A program made the translations under genes and the position numbers. A stretch of DNA of 7,335 bases, taken from a virus (taxonomy: Duplodnaviria > Heunggongvirae > Uroviricota > Caudoviricetes). The notes beneath the pieces were generated by a model, which was not told the DNA's origin, made no database searches, and saw nothing but the letters and a program-made list of their open reading frames with translations. The stretch is from the IMG/VR virus record IMGVR_UViG_2547132252_000008, one strand, 5' to 3'. Shown one piece after another: positions 504 through 7,335 of the stretch; position 1 is the first letter of the stretch; the number at the start of each line of letters is the position of its first letter.

Positions 504-527
504 TACGATAGAGCAGGTGGTGAACTG

Positions 528-1226
528 ATGCAGAATATTCATGAAGAAAGCCTGAACGAGTCGGTTAAGTCAGAGCAGTCACCGCGGGTGGTGCTCTGGG
601 AAATCGACCTGACGGTGCAGGGCGGTGAGCGGTATTTTTTCTGCAATGAGCTGAATGAAAAAAGGGAGCCGGTGACCTGGCAGGGGCGGCAATATCAGGC
701 GTACCCGATTGAGGGCAGTGGCTTTGAGATGAACGGAAAGGGCAGCAGTGCCCGCCCGTCGCTGACGGTGTCCAATCTGTTCGGTCTTGTCACCGGGATG
801 GCGGAGGATTTGCAGAGCCTGGTGGGTGCCACGGTGGTCCGCCGCCGGGTGTATGCGCGTTTTCTGGATGCGGTGAACTTTGTGGCAGGCAATCCGGAGG
901 CCGACCCGGAGCAGGAGCTGAGCGACCGCTGGGTGGTGGAGCAGATGTCAGAGCTGACGGCCATGACAGCCTCGTTTGTGCTGGCAACACCGACGGAGAC
1001 GGACGGAGCGCTGTTTCCCGGTCGCATCATGCTGGCGAACACCTGTATGTGGGATTACCGGGGAGATGAATGCGGTTATCACGGTCCTGCGGTGGCGGAT
1101 GAGTTCGACAACCCCACCACGGATATCCGGAAGGACAGATGCAGTAAATGCATGCGCGGGTGTGAGATGCGCGGCATGGTGGCTAATTTCGGCGGTTTCC
1201 TTTCCATTAACAAACTTTCGCAGTAA
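528..1226 (+). CDS. L: Tail tip protein L (lambda gpL family), 232 aa.
   Basis: The ORF starts MQNIHEESLNE...VVLWEIDLT..GGERYFFCNE.NEK.EPVTWQGRQYQ and ends ...GNFGGFLSINKLSQ, matching lambda gpL as I recall it and at the same length. It has the C-terminal Cys cluster (CMWDYRGDECGYHG...CSKCMRGC) that fits the Fe-S-binding region of gpL. ATG 528 is preceded by AGGTGGTG and overlaps an upstream-frame stop (TGATG). The ORF-track start at 483 lies inside the lox spacer and has no ribosome-binding site. Confidence 0.9.
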   Translation: MQNIHEESLNESVKSEQSPRVVLWEIDLTVQGGERYFFCNELNEKREPVTWQGRQYQAYPIEGSGFEMNGKGSSARPSLTVSNLFGLVTGMAEDLQSLVGATVVRRRVYARFLDAVNFVAGNPEADPEQELSDRWVVEQMSELTAMTASFVLATPTETDGALFPGRIMLANTCMWDYRGDECGYHGPAVADEFDNPTTDIRKDRCSKCMRGCEMRGMVANFGGFLSINKLSQ

Positions 1227-1231
1227 ATCCA

Positions 1232-1975
1232 ATGACACAGACTGAATCAGCGATTCTGGCGCATGCCCGGCGGTGTGTGCCTGCGGAGTCGTGCGGCTTC
1301 GTGGTGAGAACGCCGGAGGGGGAGTGGTATATCCCTTGTGTGAATATTTCTGCAGAGCCGGAGGCGTATTTTCGTATTGCACCGGAAGACTGGCTGCGGG
1401 CAGAGATGCAGGGGGAGATTGTGGCACTGGTCCACAGTCATCCCGGTGGGCTGCCCTGGCTGAGCGAGGCTGACCGGCGGCTGCAGATAAAAAGCGCACT
1501 GCCCTGGTGGCTGGTCTGCCGGGGTGACATTCATAAATTCCGCTGTGTGCCACATCTGACAGGACGGCGCTTTGAGCACGGGGTGACGGACTGTTACACG
1601 CTGTTCCGGGATGCTTATCATCTGGCGGGGACTGAAATGCCGGATTTTGAGCGTGAGGATGACTGGTGGCGCAACGGTCAGAACCTTTACCTGGACAATA
1701 TGGCGGTCACCGGCTTTTACCGGGTGCCCCTGTCCTCTGCACAGGCGGGCGATATCCTGCTGTGCTGCTTTGGCGCATCGGTGGCCAATCATGCCGCCAT
1801 ATACTGCGGCAACGGTGAACTGCTTCACCATCTGCCTGAACAACTGAGTAAACGGGAGAGGTATTCCGAAAAATGGCAACGACGAACGCATTCTGTCTGG
1901 CGTCACCGCCACTGGCACGCATCTGCCTTCACGGGGATTTGCAACGATTTGGCCGCCGCCTCAGCCTGTACGTGA
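1232..1975 (+). CDS. K: Tail tip assembly protein K (lambda gpK family) with an MPN/JAMM domain and an NlpC/P60-type domain.
   Basis: 247-aa ORF directly after L. It carries a complete JAMM motif, HSHPGGLPWLSEAD (HxHx7Sx2D), followed by a Cys/His region (DCYTLF...NHAAIY) typical of NlpC/P60 peptidases. The 3' end overlaps I by 103 nt in another frame, as in lambda. The true start could be an internal codon; lambda K is annotated shorter. Confidence 0.85.
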   Translation: MTQTESAILAHARRCVPAESCGFVVRTPEGEWYIPCVNISAEPEAYFRIAPEDWLRAEMQGEIVALVHSHPGGLPWLSEADRRLQIKSALPWWLVCRGDIHKFRCVPHLTGRRFEHGVTDCYTLFRDAYHLAGTEMPDFEREDDWWRNGQNLYLDNMAVTGFYRVPLSSAQAGDILLCCFGASVANHAAIYCGNGELLHHLPEQLSKRERYSEKWQRRTHSVWRHRHWHASAFTGICNDLAAASACT

Positions 1976-2550
1976 ACACGGCAGCGGAAGCCATCCGTGC
2001 CCTGTCGCTGCAGATGCCGGGATTCCGCCGTCAGATGAACGAAGGCTGGTACCAGATACGTATTCGCGGTGAGGACACGGCACCGGAGGCGGTGTACGCC
2101 CGTCTTCACGAACCTCTGGGTGAGGGGGCGGTCATCCATATTGTGCCGCGACTGGCCGGAGCCGGAAAGGGCGGACTGCAGATTGTGCTGGGGGCAGCAG
2201 CCATCGTGGGCTCTTTCTTCACCGCCGGCGCAACGATGGCGTTGTGGGGCGCAGCCCTGAGTGCCGGAGGGCTGACTGCCACCACGATGCTGTTCTCACT
2301 GGGTGCCAGCATGATACTGGGCGGTGTGGCCCAGATGCTGGCACCGAAGGCAAAAACACCGGAGTACAGGGCGACGGATAACGGTAAACAGAACACGTAT
2401 TTTTCGTCACTGGATAACATGATTGCCCAGGGGAACCCGATGCCGGTGCCTTATGGTGAAATGCTGGTTGGTTCACGACGGATATCCCAGGACATCAGCA
2501 CCCGTGATGAGGGCGGAGACGGGAAAGTGGTGGTTATCGGGCGGGGATGA
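1873..2550 (+). CDS. I: Tail assembly protein I (lambda gpI family), 225 aa.
   Basis: ATG 1873 is preceded by GGAGAGG. Its length is close to lambda gpI (223 aa as I recall). It has a Gly/Ala-rich hydrophobic core (GAAAIVGSFFTAGATMALWGAALSAGG...) and a conserved C-terminus (PMPVPYGEMLVGSRRISQDISTRDEGG). Its position between K and J matches lambda synteny. Confidence 0.9.
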   Translation: MATTNAFCLASPPLARICLHGDLQRFGRRLSLYVNTAAEAIRALSLQMPGFRRQMNEGWYQIRIRGEDTAPEAVYARLHEPLGEGAVIHIVPRLAGAGKGGLQIVLGAAAIVGSFFTAGATMALWGAALSAGGLTATTMLFSLGASMILGGVAQMLAPKAKTPEYRATDNGKQNTYFSSLDNMIAQGNPMPVPYGEMLVGSRRISQDISTRDEGGDGKVVVIGRG

Positions 2551-2561
2551 AAATAAAAAAA

Positions 2562-2588
2562 TCCCGCAGAGTTAGCGGAGCTGCGGGA
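2562..2588. other. Conserved stem-loop downstream of I (stem TCCCGCAG / CTGCGGGA), preceded by the A-tract at 2551-2560.
   Basis: Same 8-bp stem as at 427-453. Read on the - strand it is a hairpin followed by a T-rich run, which is the form of an intrinsic terminator. On the + strand it has no U-tract. Confidence 0.4.
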
Positions 2589-2595
2589 GAGAACG

Positions 2596-2715
2596 ATGAA
2601 GATTAACGTTATGGAGTTATTTTTCAGGCATCAAAAAAGTAATGCAGCGTCATTATTGCGGCTACAGGCAATTGCCGGAAATGTGAAGAGTTTCAGAAAT
2701 TTTATTCCGTCATGA
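2596..2715 (+). CDS. Hypothetical small basic protein (39 aa), candidate moron ORF between I and J.
   Basis: ATG 2596 to TGA 2713-2715 encodes MKINVMELFFRHQKSNAASLLRLQAIAGNVKSFRNFIPS. There is a GGGAGAGA purine run 6-13 nt upstream, and the strong terminator hairpin follows immediately. It is below the size cut-off of the ORF track, and no homology is known to me, so confidence is low. Confidence 0.3.
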   Translation: MKINVMELFFRHQKSNAASLLRLQAIAGNVKSFRNFIPS

Positions 2716-2716
2716 C

Positions 2717-2747
2717 ACAGGCACCCTCCGGGGTGCCTGTTGTTTTC
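2717..2747 (+). terminator. Rho-independent terminator-like hairpin just upstream of J.
   Basis: Perfect 10-bp stem ACAGGCACCC (2717-2726) / GGGTGCCTGT (2731-2740) with a UCCG tetraloop (UNCG class), followed by TGTTTTCT. Confidence 0.6.
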
Positions 2748-2790
2748 TGGCATAAACAGATTCAGACATCAGACAGGAGAGGGGGACAGA

Positions 2791-5700
2791 GTGGGTAAAG
2801 GGGGCGGCAAGGGGCACACGCCGGTAGAGGCAAAGGACAATCTTAAGTCCACGCAGATGATGAGCGTGATTGACGCCATTGGTGAAGGGCCGATTGAAGG
2901 TCCGGTGAAGGGGCTGCAGAGTATTCTGGTGAACAAAACCCCACTGACGGACACGGACGGCAATCCCGTGATACACGGTGTGACCGCGGTCTGGCGCGCC
3001 GGGGAGCAGGAGCAGACACCGCCGGAAGGTTTTGAGTCATCCGGCTCTGAAACCGCACTGGGCGTGGAAGTGACGAAGGCAAAGCCGGTGACGCGCACCA
3101 TTACGTCCGCGAACATTGACCGCCTGCGGGTTACCTTCGGGGTGCAGTCACTGGTGCAGACCACCTCACAGGGTGACCGTAACCCGGCATCCGTCCGCCT
3201 GCTGATTCAGCTGCAGCGTAACGGTAACTGGGTGACGGAAAAGGATGTCACCATTAACGGCAAGACCACCTCACAGTTCCTCGCTTCGGTGATTCTGGAT
3301 AATCTGCCTCCCCGTCCCTTTAACATCCGGATGGTCCGGGAGACGGCGGACAGCACCACGGACCAGCTGCAGAACAGAACGCTGTGGTCGTCATACACCG
3401 AAATCATCGATGTGAAACAGTGCTACCCGAACACGGCGATTGTGGGGCTGCAGGTGGATGCGGAGCAGTTTGGCGGTCAGCAGATGACGGTGAACTACCA
3501 TATCCGCGGTCGCATCATCCAGGTACCGTCAAACTATGACCCGGAAAAACGCACGTACAGCGGCATCTGGGACGGCAGCCTGAAACCGGCATACAGCAAC
3601 AACCCGGCCTGGTGCCTGTGGGACATGCTGACTCACCCGCGCTACGGCATGGGAAAACGCCTGGGGGCCGCGGATGTTGACAAGTGGGCGCTGTATGCCA
3701 TCGGGCAGTACTGCGACCAGACGGTCCCGGATGGTTTCGGGGGCACAGAGCCGCGGATGACCTTTAATGCGTACCTGTCACAACAGCGTAAGGCGTGGGA
3801 CGTTCTCAGTGATTTCTGCTCGGCGATGCGCTGTATGCCGGTATGGAACGGCCAGACGCTGACGTTCGTTCAGGACCGCCCGTCGGATGTGGTGTGGCCG
3901 TACACCAACTGCGATGTGGTGGTGGATGATAACGGCGTGGGGTTTCGCTACAGCTTCAGCGCCCTGAAGGACCGCCACACGGCGGTGGAGGTGAATTACA
4001 CCGACCCGCAGAACGGCTGGCAGACCTCCACGGAACTGGTGGAAGACCCGGAAGCCATACTGCGCTACGGGCGCAACCTGCTGAAGATGGATGCGTTCGG
4101 CTGCACCAGTCGCGGTCAGGCCCACCGTGCCGGGCTGTGGGTGATAAAGACCGGACTGCTGGAAACGCAGACGGTGGATTTCACGCTCGGGTCTCAGGGG
4201 CTGCGTCACACACCCGGTGACATTATTGAAATCTGTGATAACGACTATGCCGGGACCATGACCGGCGGACGTGTCCTGTCCATCGATGCCGCCAGCCGCA
4301 CCCTGACACTGGACCGTGAGGTGACCCTGCCGGAGACAGGTACACCGACGGTGAACCTGATTAACGGCAGCGGTAAGCCGGTGAGCGTGGCCATCACTGC
4401 ACACCCCGCGCCGGACCGGATACAGGTCAGCACCCTGCCGGATGGCGTGGAGACATACGGTGTATGGGGACTCTCCCTGCCGTCACTGCGTCGTCGCCTG
4501 TTCCGCTGTGTCTCCATCCGGGAAAACACGGACGGCACCTTTGCCATCACGGCGGTGCAGCACGTACCGGAAAAAGAAGCCATTGTGGATAACGGGGCCA
4601 GCTTTGAGCCACTGTCCGGTTCGCTGAACAGCGTCATCCCGCCGGCTGTGCAGCACCTGACGGTGGAGGTGAGCGCGGCTGACGGTCAGTATCTGGCACA
4701 GGCGAAATGGGACACGCCGCGGGTGGTGAAGGGCGTGCGCTTCAGTCTGCGCCTGACCAGTGGTAAGGGAACGGATGCCAGACTGGTGACCACCGCCATC
4801 ACCGCAGACACGGAGCACCGTTTCAGCGGCCTGCCGCTCGGGGAATACACCCTGACGGTGCGGGCGATAAACAGCTATGGCCAGCAGGGTGAACCTGCCA
4901 CCACCACCTTCCGGATTGCCGCACCGGCAGCACCGTCGCGGATTGAGCTGACGCCGGGCTATTTTCAGATAACCGCCACGCCGCATCTTGCCGTTTATGA
5001 CCCGACGGTACAGTTTGAGTTCTGGTTCTCGGAAAAGCGGATTGCGGATATCAGGCAGGTTGAAACCGCAGCCCGCTATCTTGGCTCGGCGCTGTACTGG
5101 ATAGCTGCCAGTATCAATATCAAACCGGGCCATGATTATTATTTTTATATCCGCAGTGTGAATACTGTTGGCAAATCGGCATTCGTGGAGGCTGTCGGTC
5201 GGGCGAGCGATGATGCGGAAGGTTACCTGGATTTTTTCAAAGGAGAAATCGGGAAAACACATCTGGCCCAGGAGCTGTGGACGCAGATTGATAACGGTCA
5301 GCTTGCGCCGGACCTGGCTGAAATCAGGACGTCCATTACGAATGTCAGCAATGAAATCACGCAGACCGTCAATAAAAAACTGGAAAATCAGAGTGCGGCA
5401 ATCCAGCAGATACAGAAAGTTCAGGTTGATACAAATAATAACCTGAACAGCATGTGGGCCGTGAAACTGCAGCAGATGCAGGACGGACGCCTTTATATTG
5501 CGGGTATCGGTGCCGGTATTGAGAATACGCCAGCAGGAATGCAGAGTCAGGTGCTGCTGGCGGCAGACAGGATTGCGATGATTAATCCTGCGAATGGCAA
5601 CACAAAGCCGATGTTTGTTGGTCAGGGCGATCAGATATTTATGAATGAAGTGTTCCTGAAATATCTGACGGCTCCCACCATTACCAGCGGCGGTAATCCT

Positions 5701-6264
5701 CCGGCATTTTCCCTGACACCGGACGGGCGGCTGACGGCGAAAAATGCCGATATCAGCGGTAACGTGAATGCGAACTCCGGGACGCTCAACAACGTCACGA
5801 TTAACGAGAACTGTCGGGTTCTGGGAAAATTGTCCGCGAACCAGATTGAAGGCGATCTCGTTAAAACAGTGGGCAAAGCTTTCCCCCGGGACTCCCGTGC
5901 ACCGGAGCGGTGGCCATCAGGAACCATTACCGTCAGGGTTTATGACGATCAGCCGTTTGACCGGCAGATTGTTATTCCGGCGGTGGCATTCAGCGGCGCT
6001 AAACATGAGAAAGAGCATACTGATATTTACTCCTCATGCCGTCTGATAGTGCGGAAAAACGGTGCTGAAATTTATAACCGTACCGCGCTGGATAATACGC
6101 TGATTTACAGTGGTGTTATTGATATGCCTGCCGGTCACGGTCACATGACACTGGAGTTTTCGGTGTCAGCATGGCTGGTAAATAACTGGTATCCCACAGC
6201 AAGTATCAGCGATTTGCTGGTTGTGGTGATGAAGAAAGCCACTGCAGGCATCACGATTAGCTGA
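2791..6264 (+). CDS. J: Tail tip host-specificity / central fibre protein J (lambda gpJ family), about 1157 aa.
   Basis: A 3.5-kb ORF. From GTG 2791 the N-terminus reads [22 protein letters not shown], matching the lambda gpJ N-terminus as I recall it, and is preceded by GGAGAGGGGG. The TTG at 2740 used by the ORF track lies inside the terminator stem and is unlikely to be the start. The gene sits between I and lom. Confidence 0.9.
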
Positions 6265-6282
6265 ATTTTATAACCCAGATAC

Positions 6283-6308
6283 GGGCGCCAGAAATGGCGC
6301 CTTTTTTA
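6283..6308 (+). terminator. Rho-independent terminator after J.
   Basis: Stem GGCGCCA (6284-6290) / TGGCGCC (6295-6301) with a GAAA loop, followed by TTTTTT (6302-6307), 19 nt after the J stop. Confidence 0.65.
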
Positions 6309-6331
6309 TTGCAGAAAAGCGAGAGGTAATT

Positions 6332-6931
6332 ATGCGTAAATTATGTGCTGTTATTTTGTCCGCAGTAGTCTGGCAGGTCGCCGCTGCTACGCCAGCGAGT
6401 GCAGCAGAACATCAGTCCACGCTGAGCGCGGGGTATCTCCATGCCTCGACGAACGTTCCCGGTAGTGATGATCTGAACGGGATTAACGTGAAATACCGTT
6501 ATGAGTTTATGGACGCGCTGGGGCTGATTACGTCCTTCAGTTATGCCAATGCTGAGGATGAGCAAAAAACGCGCTACAGCGATACCCGCTGGCATGAAGA
6601 TTCCGTGCGTAACCGCTGGTTCAGCGTGATGGCGGGGCCGTCTGTACGCGTGAATGAATGGTTCAGCGCGTATGCGATGGCGGGTGTGGCTTACAGCCGT
6701 GTGTCGACTTTCTACGGGGATTATCTCCGCGTAACTGACAACAAGGGGAAAACGCACGATGTGCTGACCGGAAGTGATGACGGTCGCCACAGCAACACGT
6801 CTCTGGCGTGGGGAGCTGGCGTGCAGTTTAACCCGACCGAATCCGTGGCCATTGATATTGCTTATGAAGGCTCCGGCAGTGGCGACTGGCGCACTGACGG
6901 TTTCATCGTGGGTGTCGGTTATAAATTCTGA
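6332..6931 (+). CDS. lom: Lom-like outer-membrane beta-barrel protein (Ail/Lom/PagC/OmpX family), 199 aa.
   Basis: N-terminal signal peptide (MRKLCAVILSAVVWQVAAATPASA-AE). The C-terminal third (AWGAGVQFNPTESVAIDIAYEGSGSGDWRTDGFIVGVGYKF) closely matches lambda Lom as I recall it and ends in a terminal Phe, as outer-membrane barrels typically do. GAGAGG lies 5 nt before the ATG. Its position between J and stf matches lambda. Confidence 0.9.
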   Translation: MRKLCAVILSAVVWQVAAATPASAAEHQSTLSAGYLHASTNVPGSDDLNGINVKYRYEFMDALGLITSFSYANAEDEQKTRYSDTRWHEDSVRNRWFSVMAGPSVRVNEWFSAYAMAGVAYSRVSTFYGDYLRVTDNKGKTHDVLTGSDDGRHSNTSLAWGAGVQFNPTESVAIDIAYEGSGSGDWRTDGFIVGVGYKF

Positions 6932-6957
6932 TTAGCCAGGTAACACAGTGTTATGAC

Positions 6958-6985
6958 AGCCCGCCGGTTCAGGCGGGCTTTTTTG
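6958..6985 (+). terminator. Rho-independent terminator after lom.
   Basis: Stem AGCCCGCC (6958-6965) / GGCGGGCT (6972-6979) with a 6-nt loop, followed by a T-run (6979-6984), 27 nt after the lom stop. Confidence 0.7.
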
Positions 6986-6995
6986 TGGGGGGAAT

Positions 6996-7335
6996 ATGGC
7001 AGTAAAGATTTCAGGTGTACTGAAAGACGGCACAGGAAAACCGGTAGAGAACTGCACCATTCAACTGAAAGCCAGACGGACCAGCAGCACGGTGGTGGTG
7101 AACACGGTGGCCTCTGAAAATCCGGATGAAGCCGGTCGTTACAGCATGGACGTTGAGTACGGTCAGTACAGCGTCATTCTGTTGGTGGAGGGCTTCCCGC
7201 CGTCACATGCCGGGACCATCACCGTGTATGAAGATTCTCAACCCGGTACGCTGAATGATTTTCTCGGTGCCATGTCGGAGGATGACGTCCGGCCGGAGGC
7301 ACTGCGTCGTTTTGAACTGATGGTGGAAGAAGCGG
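6996..7335 (+). CDS. stf: Side tail fibre protein Stf, N-terminal 113 aa (3' end runs off the window).
   Basis: ATG 6996 is preceded by GGGGGG. The translation (MAVKISGVLKDGTGKPVENCTIQLKARRTSSTVVVNTVASENPDEAGRYSMDVEYGQYSVIL...) matches the lambda Stf N-terminus as I recall it. The frame is open to the window edge. Confidence 0.85.
   Translation, partial: MAVKISGVLKDGTGKPVENCTIQLKARRTSSTVVVNTVASENPDEAGRYSMDVEYGQYSVILLVEGFPPSHAGTITVYEDSQPGTLNDFLGAMSEDDVRPEALRRFELMVEEA

Follow-up and report, generated by a model that had tools for sequence, protein, structure and literature searches.

Mosaic cassettes and a compositional step in the distal third of a lambdoid gene J with a putative OmpC-directed tip

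Introduction

Exchange of the C-terminus of J is a classical determinant of host range, as exemplified by lambda/434 hybrids, and the swap of J between lambda and 434 changes the receptor from LamB to OmpC (PMC3509688). Lambda gpJ (P03749; PDB 8IYK, 8XCJ, and 8XCK) uses LamB, whereas A8 gpJ (PDB 9wca and 9wcb; natural counterpart, PhiR70_1) and J of phage 434 carry OmpC-binding tips. An OmpC-directed chimera, gpJ 1A2, was engineered by fusion within the beta-prism stretch, at lambda aa 964, and its hub, FNIII domains, short shaft, and prism up to this residue are those of lambda (Brodel et al., Nature 2024, PMC11338833). When lamB/ompC-deleted cells were complemented, this chimera delivered DNA if OmpC-EDL933 was supplied, whereas OmpC-MG1655 did not support delivery; delivery to lamB+ MG1655 was poor (5% at MOI 50) (PMC11338833). 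Thus, 1A2 accepts OmpC of the EDL933 type only, whereas A8 accepts OmpC of both K-12 and EDL933. A literature search on the PhiR phages yielded nothing relevant.

Here we describe gene J in a stretch of viral DNA of 7,335 nt (IMG/VR record IMGVR_UViG_2547132252_000008), the whole of which is referred to as the window. Among the closest known relatives, prophage VT1-Sakai (Sp15, AP000400) is 97.7% identical in nucleotide sequence over positions 512-7335 and 100% identical over 5246-6264, from the shaft to the receptor-binding domain (RBD), and two PPompW-type O157 prophages are also 100% identical to the window over 5246-6264. VT1-Sakai shares the gene order L-K-I-J-lom-stf, and its J allele is essentially that of the window. 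However, VT1-Sakai J is annotated as split by mutation, whereas J of the window is a single intact frame of 1157 aa.

Results

Identity and setting of gene J

Gene J, which encodes the tip attachment or central tail fibre protein, occupies positions 2791-6264 of the plus strand as an unbroken frame in the list of open reading frames. It begins with GTG, and the homologous J of the RefSeq phage 1717 is annotated with the same start. In a global alignment, the protein was collinear with lambda J over its full length. Six Pfam gpJ domains were detected in the expected order (FNIII-A_GpJ, Phage-tail_3, Ig_J, Ig_J_second, Phage_Tail_Tip, and Ig_GpJ_C), all above the curated cut-offs with E-values of 2e-31 to 9e-41. 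By homology to the solved lambda and A8 structures, the product probably forms a trimeric tail tip that triggers DNA ejection on receptor binding. Overlapping open reading frames in other frames or on the opposite strand (4483-5262, 5631-5927, 5168-5446, and 5768-6046) had no Pfam match, and an Rfam scan of the window gave no match.

The gene context, L-K-I-J-lom-stf, is that of a lambda-type J, except that gene M is absent because of a lox junction. The loxP-type site lies at 469-503; its 8-bp spacer, ATGTATGC, and its right 13-bp arm are exact, an extra nucleotide is inserted in the left arm, and the flanks are identical to those of a scar in the engineered K-12 strain GM4792. The junction was not found in genomic or viral contig collections, nor did it occur contiguously among the complete E. 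coli genomes and phage records listed as matches. The scar indicates that the window derives from an engineered strain, and the locus taken as a whole therefore departs from its natural configuration.

Segments, breakpoints, and flanks

A protein homologue search with J returned only partial J fragments that were 90-100% identical, and therefore provided no diversity. The detailed comparison set comprised 15 J genes, namely that of the window and 14 others. The initial annotation had suggested, chiefly on the basis of GC content, that the distal part of J, from 5090 to 6264, is a horizontally exchanged receptor-binding module. Comparison with the 14 other genes, rather than GC content alone, supports a mosaic reading, in which relatives, breakpoints, and synonymous divergence shift along the gene; all segments described below are on the plus strand.

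Segment 1 (2791-4905) comprises the hub domains and FNIII-1 (Pfam FNIII-A_GpJ, Phage-tail_3, and Ig_J), has a uniformly high third-position GC content (GC3) of 0.76, and belongs to a Stx-prophage clade; it is 94-96% identical in nucleotide sequence to phage 1717, Stx1_8100, and JNE122137, and 74% identical to lambda, 21, and 434. Segment 2 (4906-5244), assigned by nucleotide identity and synonymous divergence (dS), is a lambda-like allele of FNIII-2 (Pfam Ig_J_second). Its identity to lambda, 3W, 434, phage 21, and R70_1 is 90-94% overall (92% for lambda) and 95-100% in the core, but it is just 67-71% for most of the phages with which segment 1 is shared. Segment 3a (5245-5454), delimited by alignments and by the breakpoint at 5244, is the alpha-helical shaft, a domain name taken from PMC11101478. 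It is a Q/N-rich "coil" of the medium-length allele, 91-95% identical to phage 21, R70_1, EH2201, and 1717 and essentially unalignable with lambda. Segment 3b (5455-5784) is the central straight fibre, or beta-prism (Pfam Phage_Tail_Tip), recognised by identity and by its conserved 3' end (~5620-5800), which would serve the RBD cassette as its upstream homology arm. The shaft and prism together are 95% identical to those of PhiR70_1. Similarity to JNE122137 begins at 5679-5721, within segment 3b. Segment 4 (5785-6264) is the RBD (Pfam Ig_GpJ_C, aa 1027-1157), 97% identical to Stx2a_JNE122137, 90% to PhiR40_1, and 54-67% to others; identity, breakpoints, the match to gpJ 1A2, and the predicted fold all mark it as a "1A2"-type unit.

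Maximum-chi2 analysis detected breakpoints at 4912-4918, 5244, 5679-5721, and 5828-5853, each of which exceeded all 1000 permutations; at 4912-4918, chi2 was 253-274 compared with a null maximum of 18. The breakpoints coincided with Pfam domain boundaries and agreed with the domains delineated in the cryo-EM study of lambda. At the first one, aa 712 is the last residue of Ig_J and aa 714 the first of Ig_J_second. We used dS since it is insensitive to protein constraint. Over the five modules, dS was 0.94, 0.18, 1.86, 1.11, and 1.83 against lambda (0.94 in segment 1 and 0.18 in FNIII-2) and 0.21, 1.59, 1.38, 0.98, and 0.11 against JNE122137, and synonymous divergence thus differed 5-15 fold between adjacent segments. 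Clustering at 85% identity gave approximately two allelic types in the hub, four to five in the shaft and prism, and seven to eight in the RBD. No signal of gross positive selection was seen, because domain-averaged dN/dS was just 0.02-0.35 in every comparison.

The variable cassettes are bounded by conserved islands at ~4950-5040, at ~5620-5800, and from 6201 onward. The last of these is the downstream homology arm (6201-6931, plus strand), which consists of the last J codons, a terminator-like hairpin (6283-6302), and lom (6332-6931; Pfam Ail_Lom, 1e-123). In phages with other RBD types, homology of 91-93% returns at 6201-6226. The incongruent neighbours, the sharp differences in dS, and the conserved flanks usable as homology arms together point to cassette exchange. 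Horizontal exchange of the host-range domain was thus borne out by incongruent identity, breakpoints, and dS; rather than one module, however, the distal third contains at least four cassettes that assort independently of each other, namely FNIII-2, the helical shaft, the beta-prism, and the RBD, and the variable RBD core starts at ~5830-5850 (maximum-chi2 breakpoint, 5828-5853; Ig_GpJ_C from 5869) instead of 5090. Nor is the C-terminal region equally similar to lambda throughout, as identity differed by segment in the alignments.

RBD type and receptor

J residues ~990-1157 of the window match the graft of gpJ 1A2. Of 168 C-terminal residues checked against the supplement of Brodel et al. (2024), 155 were recovered as exact 5-mers; the supplement is a machine-read PDF with frame-breaking errors, and the 13 unreadable residues coincide with these errors. 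The graft codons were recoded and are 67% identical to those of the window, which are natural. The comparison was therefore made at the protein level, plain tblastn being misleading for the same reason, and exact 14-mers of the natural RBD DNA were not found in that supplement. The matched graft sequence indicates that the window RBD is probably of the OmpC-specific "1A2" type. The rest of the protein differs from the chimera, which has a lambda hub and a short shaft, whereas in the window the hub is of the Stx type and the shaft has 28 additional residues.

The LamB-binding RBD of lambda was considered and rejected, its residues ~975-1132 being just 43% identical to the window RBD; the initial annotation, which had proposed a comparison with the LamB-binding domain, was thus off target in this respect. 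The RBD is 64% identical to that of A8, which was solved with OmpC EDL933 (9wcb) and is the best PDB sequence match to J (E = 6e-118), and 46% identical to that of 434. A single-sequence AlphaFold2 (AF2) model was unusable (pLDDT 53, TM ~0.45) and was superseded by a model built from a 28-sequence alignment (pLDDT 84), which superposed on 9wcb with a TM of 0.83 and on lambda 8xcj with a TM of 0.87. The window J and lambda gpJ are thus predicted to share the same RBD fold as well as collinear domains. The most variable RBD stretches (5890-5913, 6004-6021, and 6079-6102) fall between strands of the predicted model, and another weakly conserved stretch lies near 6166-6210.

Given the OmpC dependence reported for the lambda-1A2 chimera, the window RBD is expected to use OmpC of the EDL933/O157 type and not LamB. 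Full-length J of the window presumably behaves like this chimera, which has the lambda hub and not the hub, shaft, and prism of the window. Of 5426 complete E. coli genomes, 3350 (~62%) carried the RBD cassette.

The drop in GC content along J

Along J, GC content falls from 61% to 50% and GC3 from 0.76 to 0.57. In 60-nt blocks, mean GC was 0.608 over 2791-5090 (range, 0.50-0.70; 1 of 38 blocks at or below 0.50) and 0.501 over 5091-6264 (range, 0.37-0.65; 11 of 19 blocks), a difference that was significant (Mann-Whitney p = 1e-5). The drop in the 3' third that had been estimated by hand is thus real, as are both of the A/T-rich strings quoted for it (5131-5150 and 5428-5443) and the Q/N-rich peptide, which is present in the J translation. 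Composition was not uniform across J, and the maximum-likelihood change point (log-likelihood ratio of 23 compared with a permutation maximum of 8) was at codon 699 for GC3 (4887/4888) and at 4959 for all bases. The boundary therefore lies ~130-200 nt 5' of ~5100, where the initial annotation had placed it. This compositional change point (4887-4960, plus strand) corresponds to the first recombination breakpoint and to the FNIII-1/FNIII-2 junction in Pfam.

The drop could be a fixed ancestral property of the J family, for example a gradient ending the high-GC structural arm, and would then be silent on exchange in this gene. Consistent with this, hub GC3 was 0.70-0.76 in all 15 J genes and GC3 dropped significantly in 12 of them. 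In lambda J, the best change point was at the equivalent codon (709 compared with 700), although it was weaker and not significant, and the drop in the window J begins within FNIII-2, which is 92-100% identical to lambda in nucleotide sequence; the string at 5131-5150, which encodes HDYYFYI, lies in this segment. Since most J genes share the drop, lambda more weakly, it is largely a family property and does not distinguish the window J from lambda. The shared codon and the start of the drop in a nearly lambda-identical segment mean that GC content cannot date or orient any exchange, and the GC signal by itself is ambiguous. However, the amplitude and position of the step vary with the allele. 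In J of the 434 type, R12_2, and R40_1, the main GC3 step is at the RBD boundary, with GC3 of 0.44-0.51, whereas GC3 remains 0.61-0.68 in RBDs of the 1717 and lambda types; that cassette GC3 follows the allele rather than the position is a trend among the 15 genes. Further, the incongruent identity and dS demonstrate exchange without recourse to composition. The family-property account is therefore a partly true description and not an alternative to mosaicism, and as the sole explanation we consider it rather unlikely.

The drop was mainly at synonymous sites: GC3 fell by 0.19, compared with 0.06 for GC1 (0.61 to 0.55) and 0.04 for GC2 (0.47 to 0.43). This bears on whether protein composition, that is, a coil and beta-strands rich in N, Q, K, and I that force A/T-rich codons, could account for the drop with no separate history. 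The quoted A/T-rich strings do encode Tyr/Phe/Ile-rich and Asn-rich peptides, and amino-acid composition contributes to the local dip, as GC2 of the helical shaft is as low as 0.30. However, the GC3 drop persists in FNIII-2 and the prism, in which GC2 (0.48 and 0.46, respectively) is close to that of the hub (0.47), and differences in dS between modules cannot arise from amino-acid content. We thus regard protein composition as a very improbable explanation of the drop as a whole.

Discussion

We consider it very probable that the distal part of J is a string of exchangeable cassettes, that the GC drop is their compositional signature, and that the RBD tip is OmpC-directed. In this model, the cassettes of lambdoid distal J would be set apart by conserved linkers, namely FNIII-2, the end of the beta-prism, and the last J codons with lom. 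Homologous or homeologous recombination within these linkers may reshuffle the cassettes among co-resident prophages, a route that we infer. In the window allele, a hub of the Stx-prophage type is joined to FNIII-2 of the lambda type, a shaft and prism like those of phage 21, and a "1A2"-type RBD. The hub two-thirds would retain the uniform high GC3 seen in all J genes compared, and the distal cassettes would carry a lower, allele-specific GC3. The GC3 of the distal cassettes is close to the composition of E. coli itself. The predicted docking site of the RBD trimer is not LamB but the EDL933/O157 type of the porin OmpC, and docking may set off a rearrangement of the shaft and prism, such as that described in the literature as opening the lambda tail.

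A laboratory origin of the mosaic J might be suspected from the Cre/lox scar, at which a partial I gene from one prophage is joined to L from a different one. Such an origin is scarcely credible, since the scar is 2.3 kb 5' of J, the natural prophages VT1-Sakai and PPompW carry the same J arrangement, the RBD cassette is abundant among E. coli genomes, and the engineered 1A2 gene, unlike the window J, has a lambda hub and recoded codons.

The observation of an exchanged host-range domain is correct in outline but ordinary, because the RBD cassette is very common and of an already characterised OmpC-binding type; in gpJ 1A2, the same RBD has already served to redirect lambda particles towards the OmpC of O157 strains. 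Further, as the GC step within J is for the most part shared across the gene family, it should not be taken to indicate that a transfer was recent or out of the ordinary. The predicted recognition of O157-type OmpC bears on the strains that can be infected by such prophages, a group that includes Stx-converting phages.

The initial annotation also took the length of J (1157 aa compared with 1132 aa in lambda) as a sign of a variant C-terminal region. The figures are right and this region does vary in length; however, the excess sits in the helical shaft, which is 28 aa longer and, less three single-residue gaps, gives the net difference of 25 aa, and not in the RBD. A single heptad register for the shaft was not supported, as at best 11 of 22 a/d positions were hydrophobic. 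It is conceivable, though doubtful, that the FNIII-1/FNIII-2 junction is a family-wide border between a vertically co-inherited hub and a shuffled "fibre supermodule" (FNIII-2, shaft, prism, RBD, lom, and stf), with the shaft then perhaps acting as a length adaptor whose size suits either the surface layer of the host or the type of RBD. Neither such a border nor such an adaptor appears to have been systematically described before. Among J genes, the helical shaft occurs in forms of 42, 70, and 143 aa, with a unit of ~40 aa.

Gene content of the window and domains of J

The window covers a lambda-type tail-tip region with the gene order I' (partial), L, K, I, J, lom and the start of stf. The closest phage record was the prophage VT1-Sakai of E. 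coli O157:H7 (97.7% identity over 512-7335 and 100% over 5246-6264). J, the tail-tip gene (2791-6264, plus strand), encodes 1157 aa from a GTG start, and the homologous GTG is annotated by RefSeq in phage 1717. The annotation of the near-identical VT1-Sakai J (locus L002, positions 5285-8757) gives two CDSs, both truncated 'by a mutation', whereas the window J is one intact 1157-aa frame. Pfam assigned six domains: FNIII-A_GpJ (residues 86-207), Phage-tail_3 (330-498), Ig_J (609-712), Ig_J_second (714-816), Phage_Tail_Tip (870-998) and Ig_GpJ_C (1027-1157). Terminator-like hairpins were located directly 5' of J (2717-2740; strong), directly 3' of J (6283-6302) and 3' of lom (6958-6979). ORFs overlapping in other frames or on the opposite strand had no family match, and an Rfam search of the window gave no match.

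Base composition changes within J

When J was divided into 60-nt blocks, mean GC was 0.608 across 2791-5090, where 1 of 38 blocks did not exceed 0.50, and 0.501 across 5091-6264 (range 0.37-0.65), where 11 of 19 did not (Mann-Whitney p = 1e-5). The GC of J is thus not uniform, confirming the distal drop described in the initial annotation; both A/T-rich strings and the peptide quoted there were present, the latter's Q/N-rich segment being the helical shaft. The drop is mainly synonymous, as GC3 fell from 0.76 to 0.57, GC1 from 0.61 to 0.55 and GC2 from 0.47 to 0.43. Maximum-likelihood analysis with a single change point placed the GC3 change at codon 699 (4887/4888) and the all-base change at 4959 (log-likelihood ratio 23 versus a permutation maximum of ~8). 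Therefore the boundary lies ~130-200 nt upstream of 5090, where it had been drawn.

J is a patchwork of several cassettes

In a codon alignment of the window J and J extracted from 14 other phages, the nearest relatives of the window J switched four times along the gene. The hub and FNIII-1 (2791 to ~4905) were closest to 1717, Stx1_8100 and Stx2a_JNE122137 (94-96% nucleotide identity), with lambda, 21 and 434 at 74%. FNIII-2 (~4906-5244) was closest to lambda, 3W, 434, 21 and PhiR70_1 (90-94%; core 95-100%), with most Stx-type phages at 67-71%. The shaft and prism (5245 to ~5700) were closest to 21, PhiR70_1 and Stx2_EH2201 (91-95%), and the lambda shaft was unalignable. The receptor-binding domain (RBD; ~5700-6264) was closest to Stx2a_JNE122137 (97%) and PhiR40_1 (90%), with all others at 54-67%. 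Maximum chi-squared breakpoints at 4912-4918, 5244, 5679-5721 and 5828-5853, each above 1000/1000 permutations, coincided with domain boundaries.

Uneven identity might instead reflect protein constraint that differs along J. This was excluded, because synonymous divergence itself differed between modules: dS over five successive modules was 0.94, 0.18, 1.86, 1.11 and 1.83 against lambda, and 0.21, 1.59, 1.38, 0.98 and 0.11 against Stx2a_JNE122137. Distal J is thus mosaic and its host-range domain exchanged, as had been proposed, although as a multi-cassette patchwork rather than as a single module from 5090. At an identity threshold of 85%, 14 phages had ~2 alleles of the hub, 4-5 of the shaft and prism and 7-8 of the RBD.

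The variable RBD core (~5850-6200), which begins ~700 nt further downstream than the receptor-binding part had been placed, was bounded by conserved sequence on both sides. The upstream flank was the end of the prism (~5620-5800); downstream, 91-93% homology returned at 6201-6226 and continued through lom even with a different RBD. This layout is that expected for cassette exchange, which would occur by recombination in the flanking homology.

The J of lambda was collinear with that of the window, with very uneven similarity. DNA identity was ~74% in the hub, 92% in FNIII-2 (95-100% in its core), ~75% in the prism and ~54% in the RBD (43% in protein), so that the C-terminal region is not equally similar throughout. 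The shafts were essentially unrelated. The greater length of the window J (1157 versus 1132 aa) had been read as a sign of a variant C-terminal region; the excess is real, but it consists of 28 additional shaft residues minus three single-residue gaps and does not come from the RBD.

The shaft was ~42 aa in lambda, 3W, 434 and Gifsy-1, ~70 aa in the window (5245-5454) and most Stx phages, and ~143 aa in PhiR40_1. The PhiR40_1 shaft contained at least two significant copies of a ~40-aa unit (scores 98 and 75 versus a shuffle maximum of 56), present once in the window; shaft length therefore varies by unit duplication.

The GC drop is largely a family property

Hub GC3 was 0.70-0.76 in all 15 J genes, and that of the distal cassette was allele-specific (0.44-0.74). 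A significant GC3 step was detected at window-equivalent 4744-4984 in eight genes including the window; the main step lay at the RBD boundary in four (434, 2851, R12_2 and PhiR40_1) and was weak or borderline in lambda, Gifsy-1 and Stx1_14040. The drop is therefore largely a property of the family, common to most J genes compared, and in the window it begins inside a segment nearly identical to lambda. Accordingly, exchange in this J cannot be deduced from the drop alone. The GC of E. coli is roughly 51%. Since the window GC3 change point is at most ~30 nt from the first recombination breakpoint, the drop is consistent with distal J having come from a reshuffled pool of different composition, near E. 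coli GC.

The RBD is predicted to be of the OmpC type

For residues 819-1157, the solved structure most similar in sequence was 'A8 gpJ 713' (9wca, 9wcb; E = 6e-118), ranking above lambda J; 9wcb captures the open state with E. coli EDL933 OmpC bound. The chimeras A8 and 1A2 were made by joining the C-termini of natural prophage J proteins to lambda J at residue 964, in order to switch the receptor from LamB to OmpC (PMC11338833). A8 was functional with the OmpC variants of both MG1655 and EDL933, whereas 1A2 gave efficient delivery only with that of EDL933, in cells deleted for lamB and ompC (PMC11338833). In the supplementary 1A2 sequence, which is recoded and was machine-read with errors, 155 of the 168 RBD-part residues of the window J (~990 to the C-terminus) were found as exact 5-mers; the unread positions were sites of frame-breaking reading errors. 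The A8 graft was 64% identical to the window RBD and 100% identical to that of PhiR70_1. The 434-type RBD, 46% identical to that of the window, is also OmpC-specific (PMC3509688). From these matches, the predicted receptor type of the window is OmpC, not LamB, and 1A2 is a closer reference for the tip than the LamB-binding domain of lambda suggested initially.

An AlphaFold2 model of residues 985-1157 (28-sequence alignment; pLDDT 84) gave TM 0.83 to 9wcb and 0.87 to the lambda-LamB complex 8xcj, indicating a conserved fold in the model. The most variable stretches (1034-1041, 1072-1077 and 1097-1104) and a further weakly conserved one near 1126-1140 lie between predicted strands and may be receptor-contact loops.

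The RBDs of PhiR70_1 and Stx1_8100 matched A8 gpJ (9wca, 9wcb) at 100% and 98%, and an OmpC receptor is therefore predicted for both phages.

Neither the J allele nor the RBD is new: the former is known from the prophages VT1-Sakai and PPompW, the latter from gpJ 1A2. Of 5426 complete E. coli genomes, 3350 carried the RBD cassette (5830-6200) with 80% or more of its length covered (median 2 and maximum 9 copies per genome), and 1026 records reached an identity of 99% or more. The family is narrow in sequence space, with only 141 matching representatives (50% identity) among 1.84 billion proteins. Of the 120 database proteins closest to 5455-6261, nearly all were incomplete J sequences derived from draft assemblies; short-read assemblies are probably broken by this repeated 3' part of J.

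A lox-like junction and the I-J spacer

A second I gene is represented at positions 1-464 by its 3' end together with ~50 nt of its downstream spacer. O157:H7 strain E32511 carries a prophage with 99.8% identity to this stretch, whereas identity to the VT1-Sakai I gene is only ~88%. A lox-like site at 469-503 (TCGT + ATAACTT[A]CGTATA-ATGTATGC-TATACGAAGTTAT + TACGAT), which corresponds to loxP carrying one extra nucleotide in one arm, joins this segment to the final 16 nt of M, followed by the beginning of L; gene M is otherwise absent from the window. The flanks of the site matched exactly those of a scar in the engineered E. coli strain K-12 GM4792, and among the matches listed neither a phage record nor a complete E. 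coli genome contained the junction. This loxP-type scar and the absence of the junction from those records suggest a strain or construct engineered with Cre/lox as the origin of the window.

The I-J spacer (2551-2790) is 240 nt long, versus 60 nt in lambda, has low GC (~0.45) and is closed by the hairpin immediately before the J start. In Stx2_EH2201, sodC lies on the opposite strand immediately upstream of J, and the spacer may therefore be a site for insertion of extra genes. A short hairpin and T-run motif (TCCGCnnnnnCTGCGGG ATTTTTTTAT, minus strand) follows both I copies (428-444 and 2563-2579), as would be expected if the two I-J spacers were paralogous and came from different prophages.
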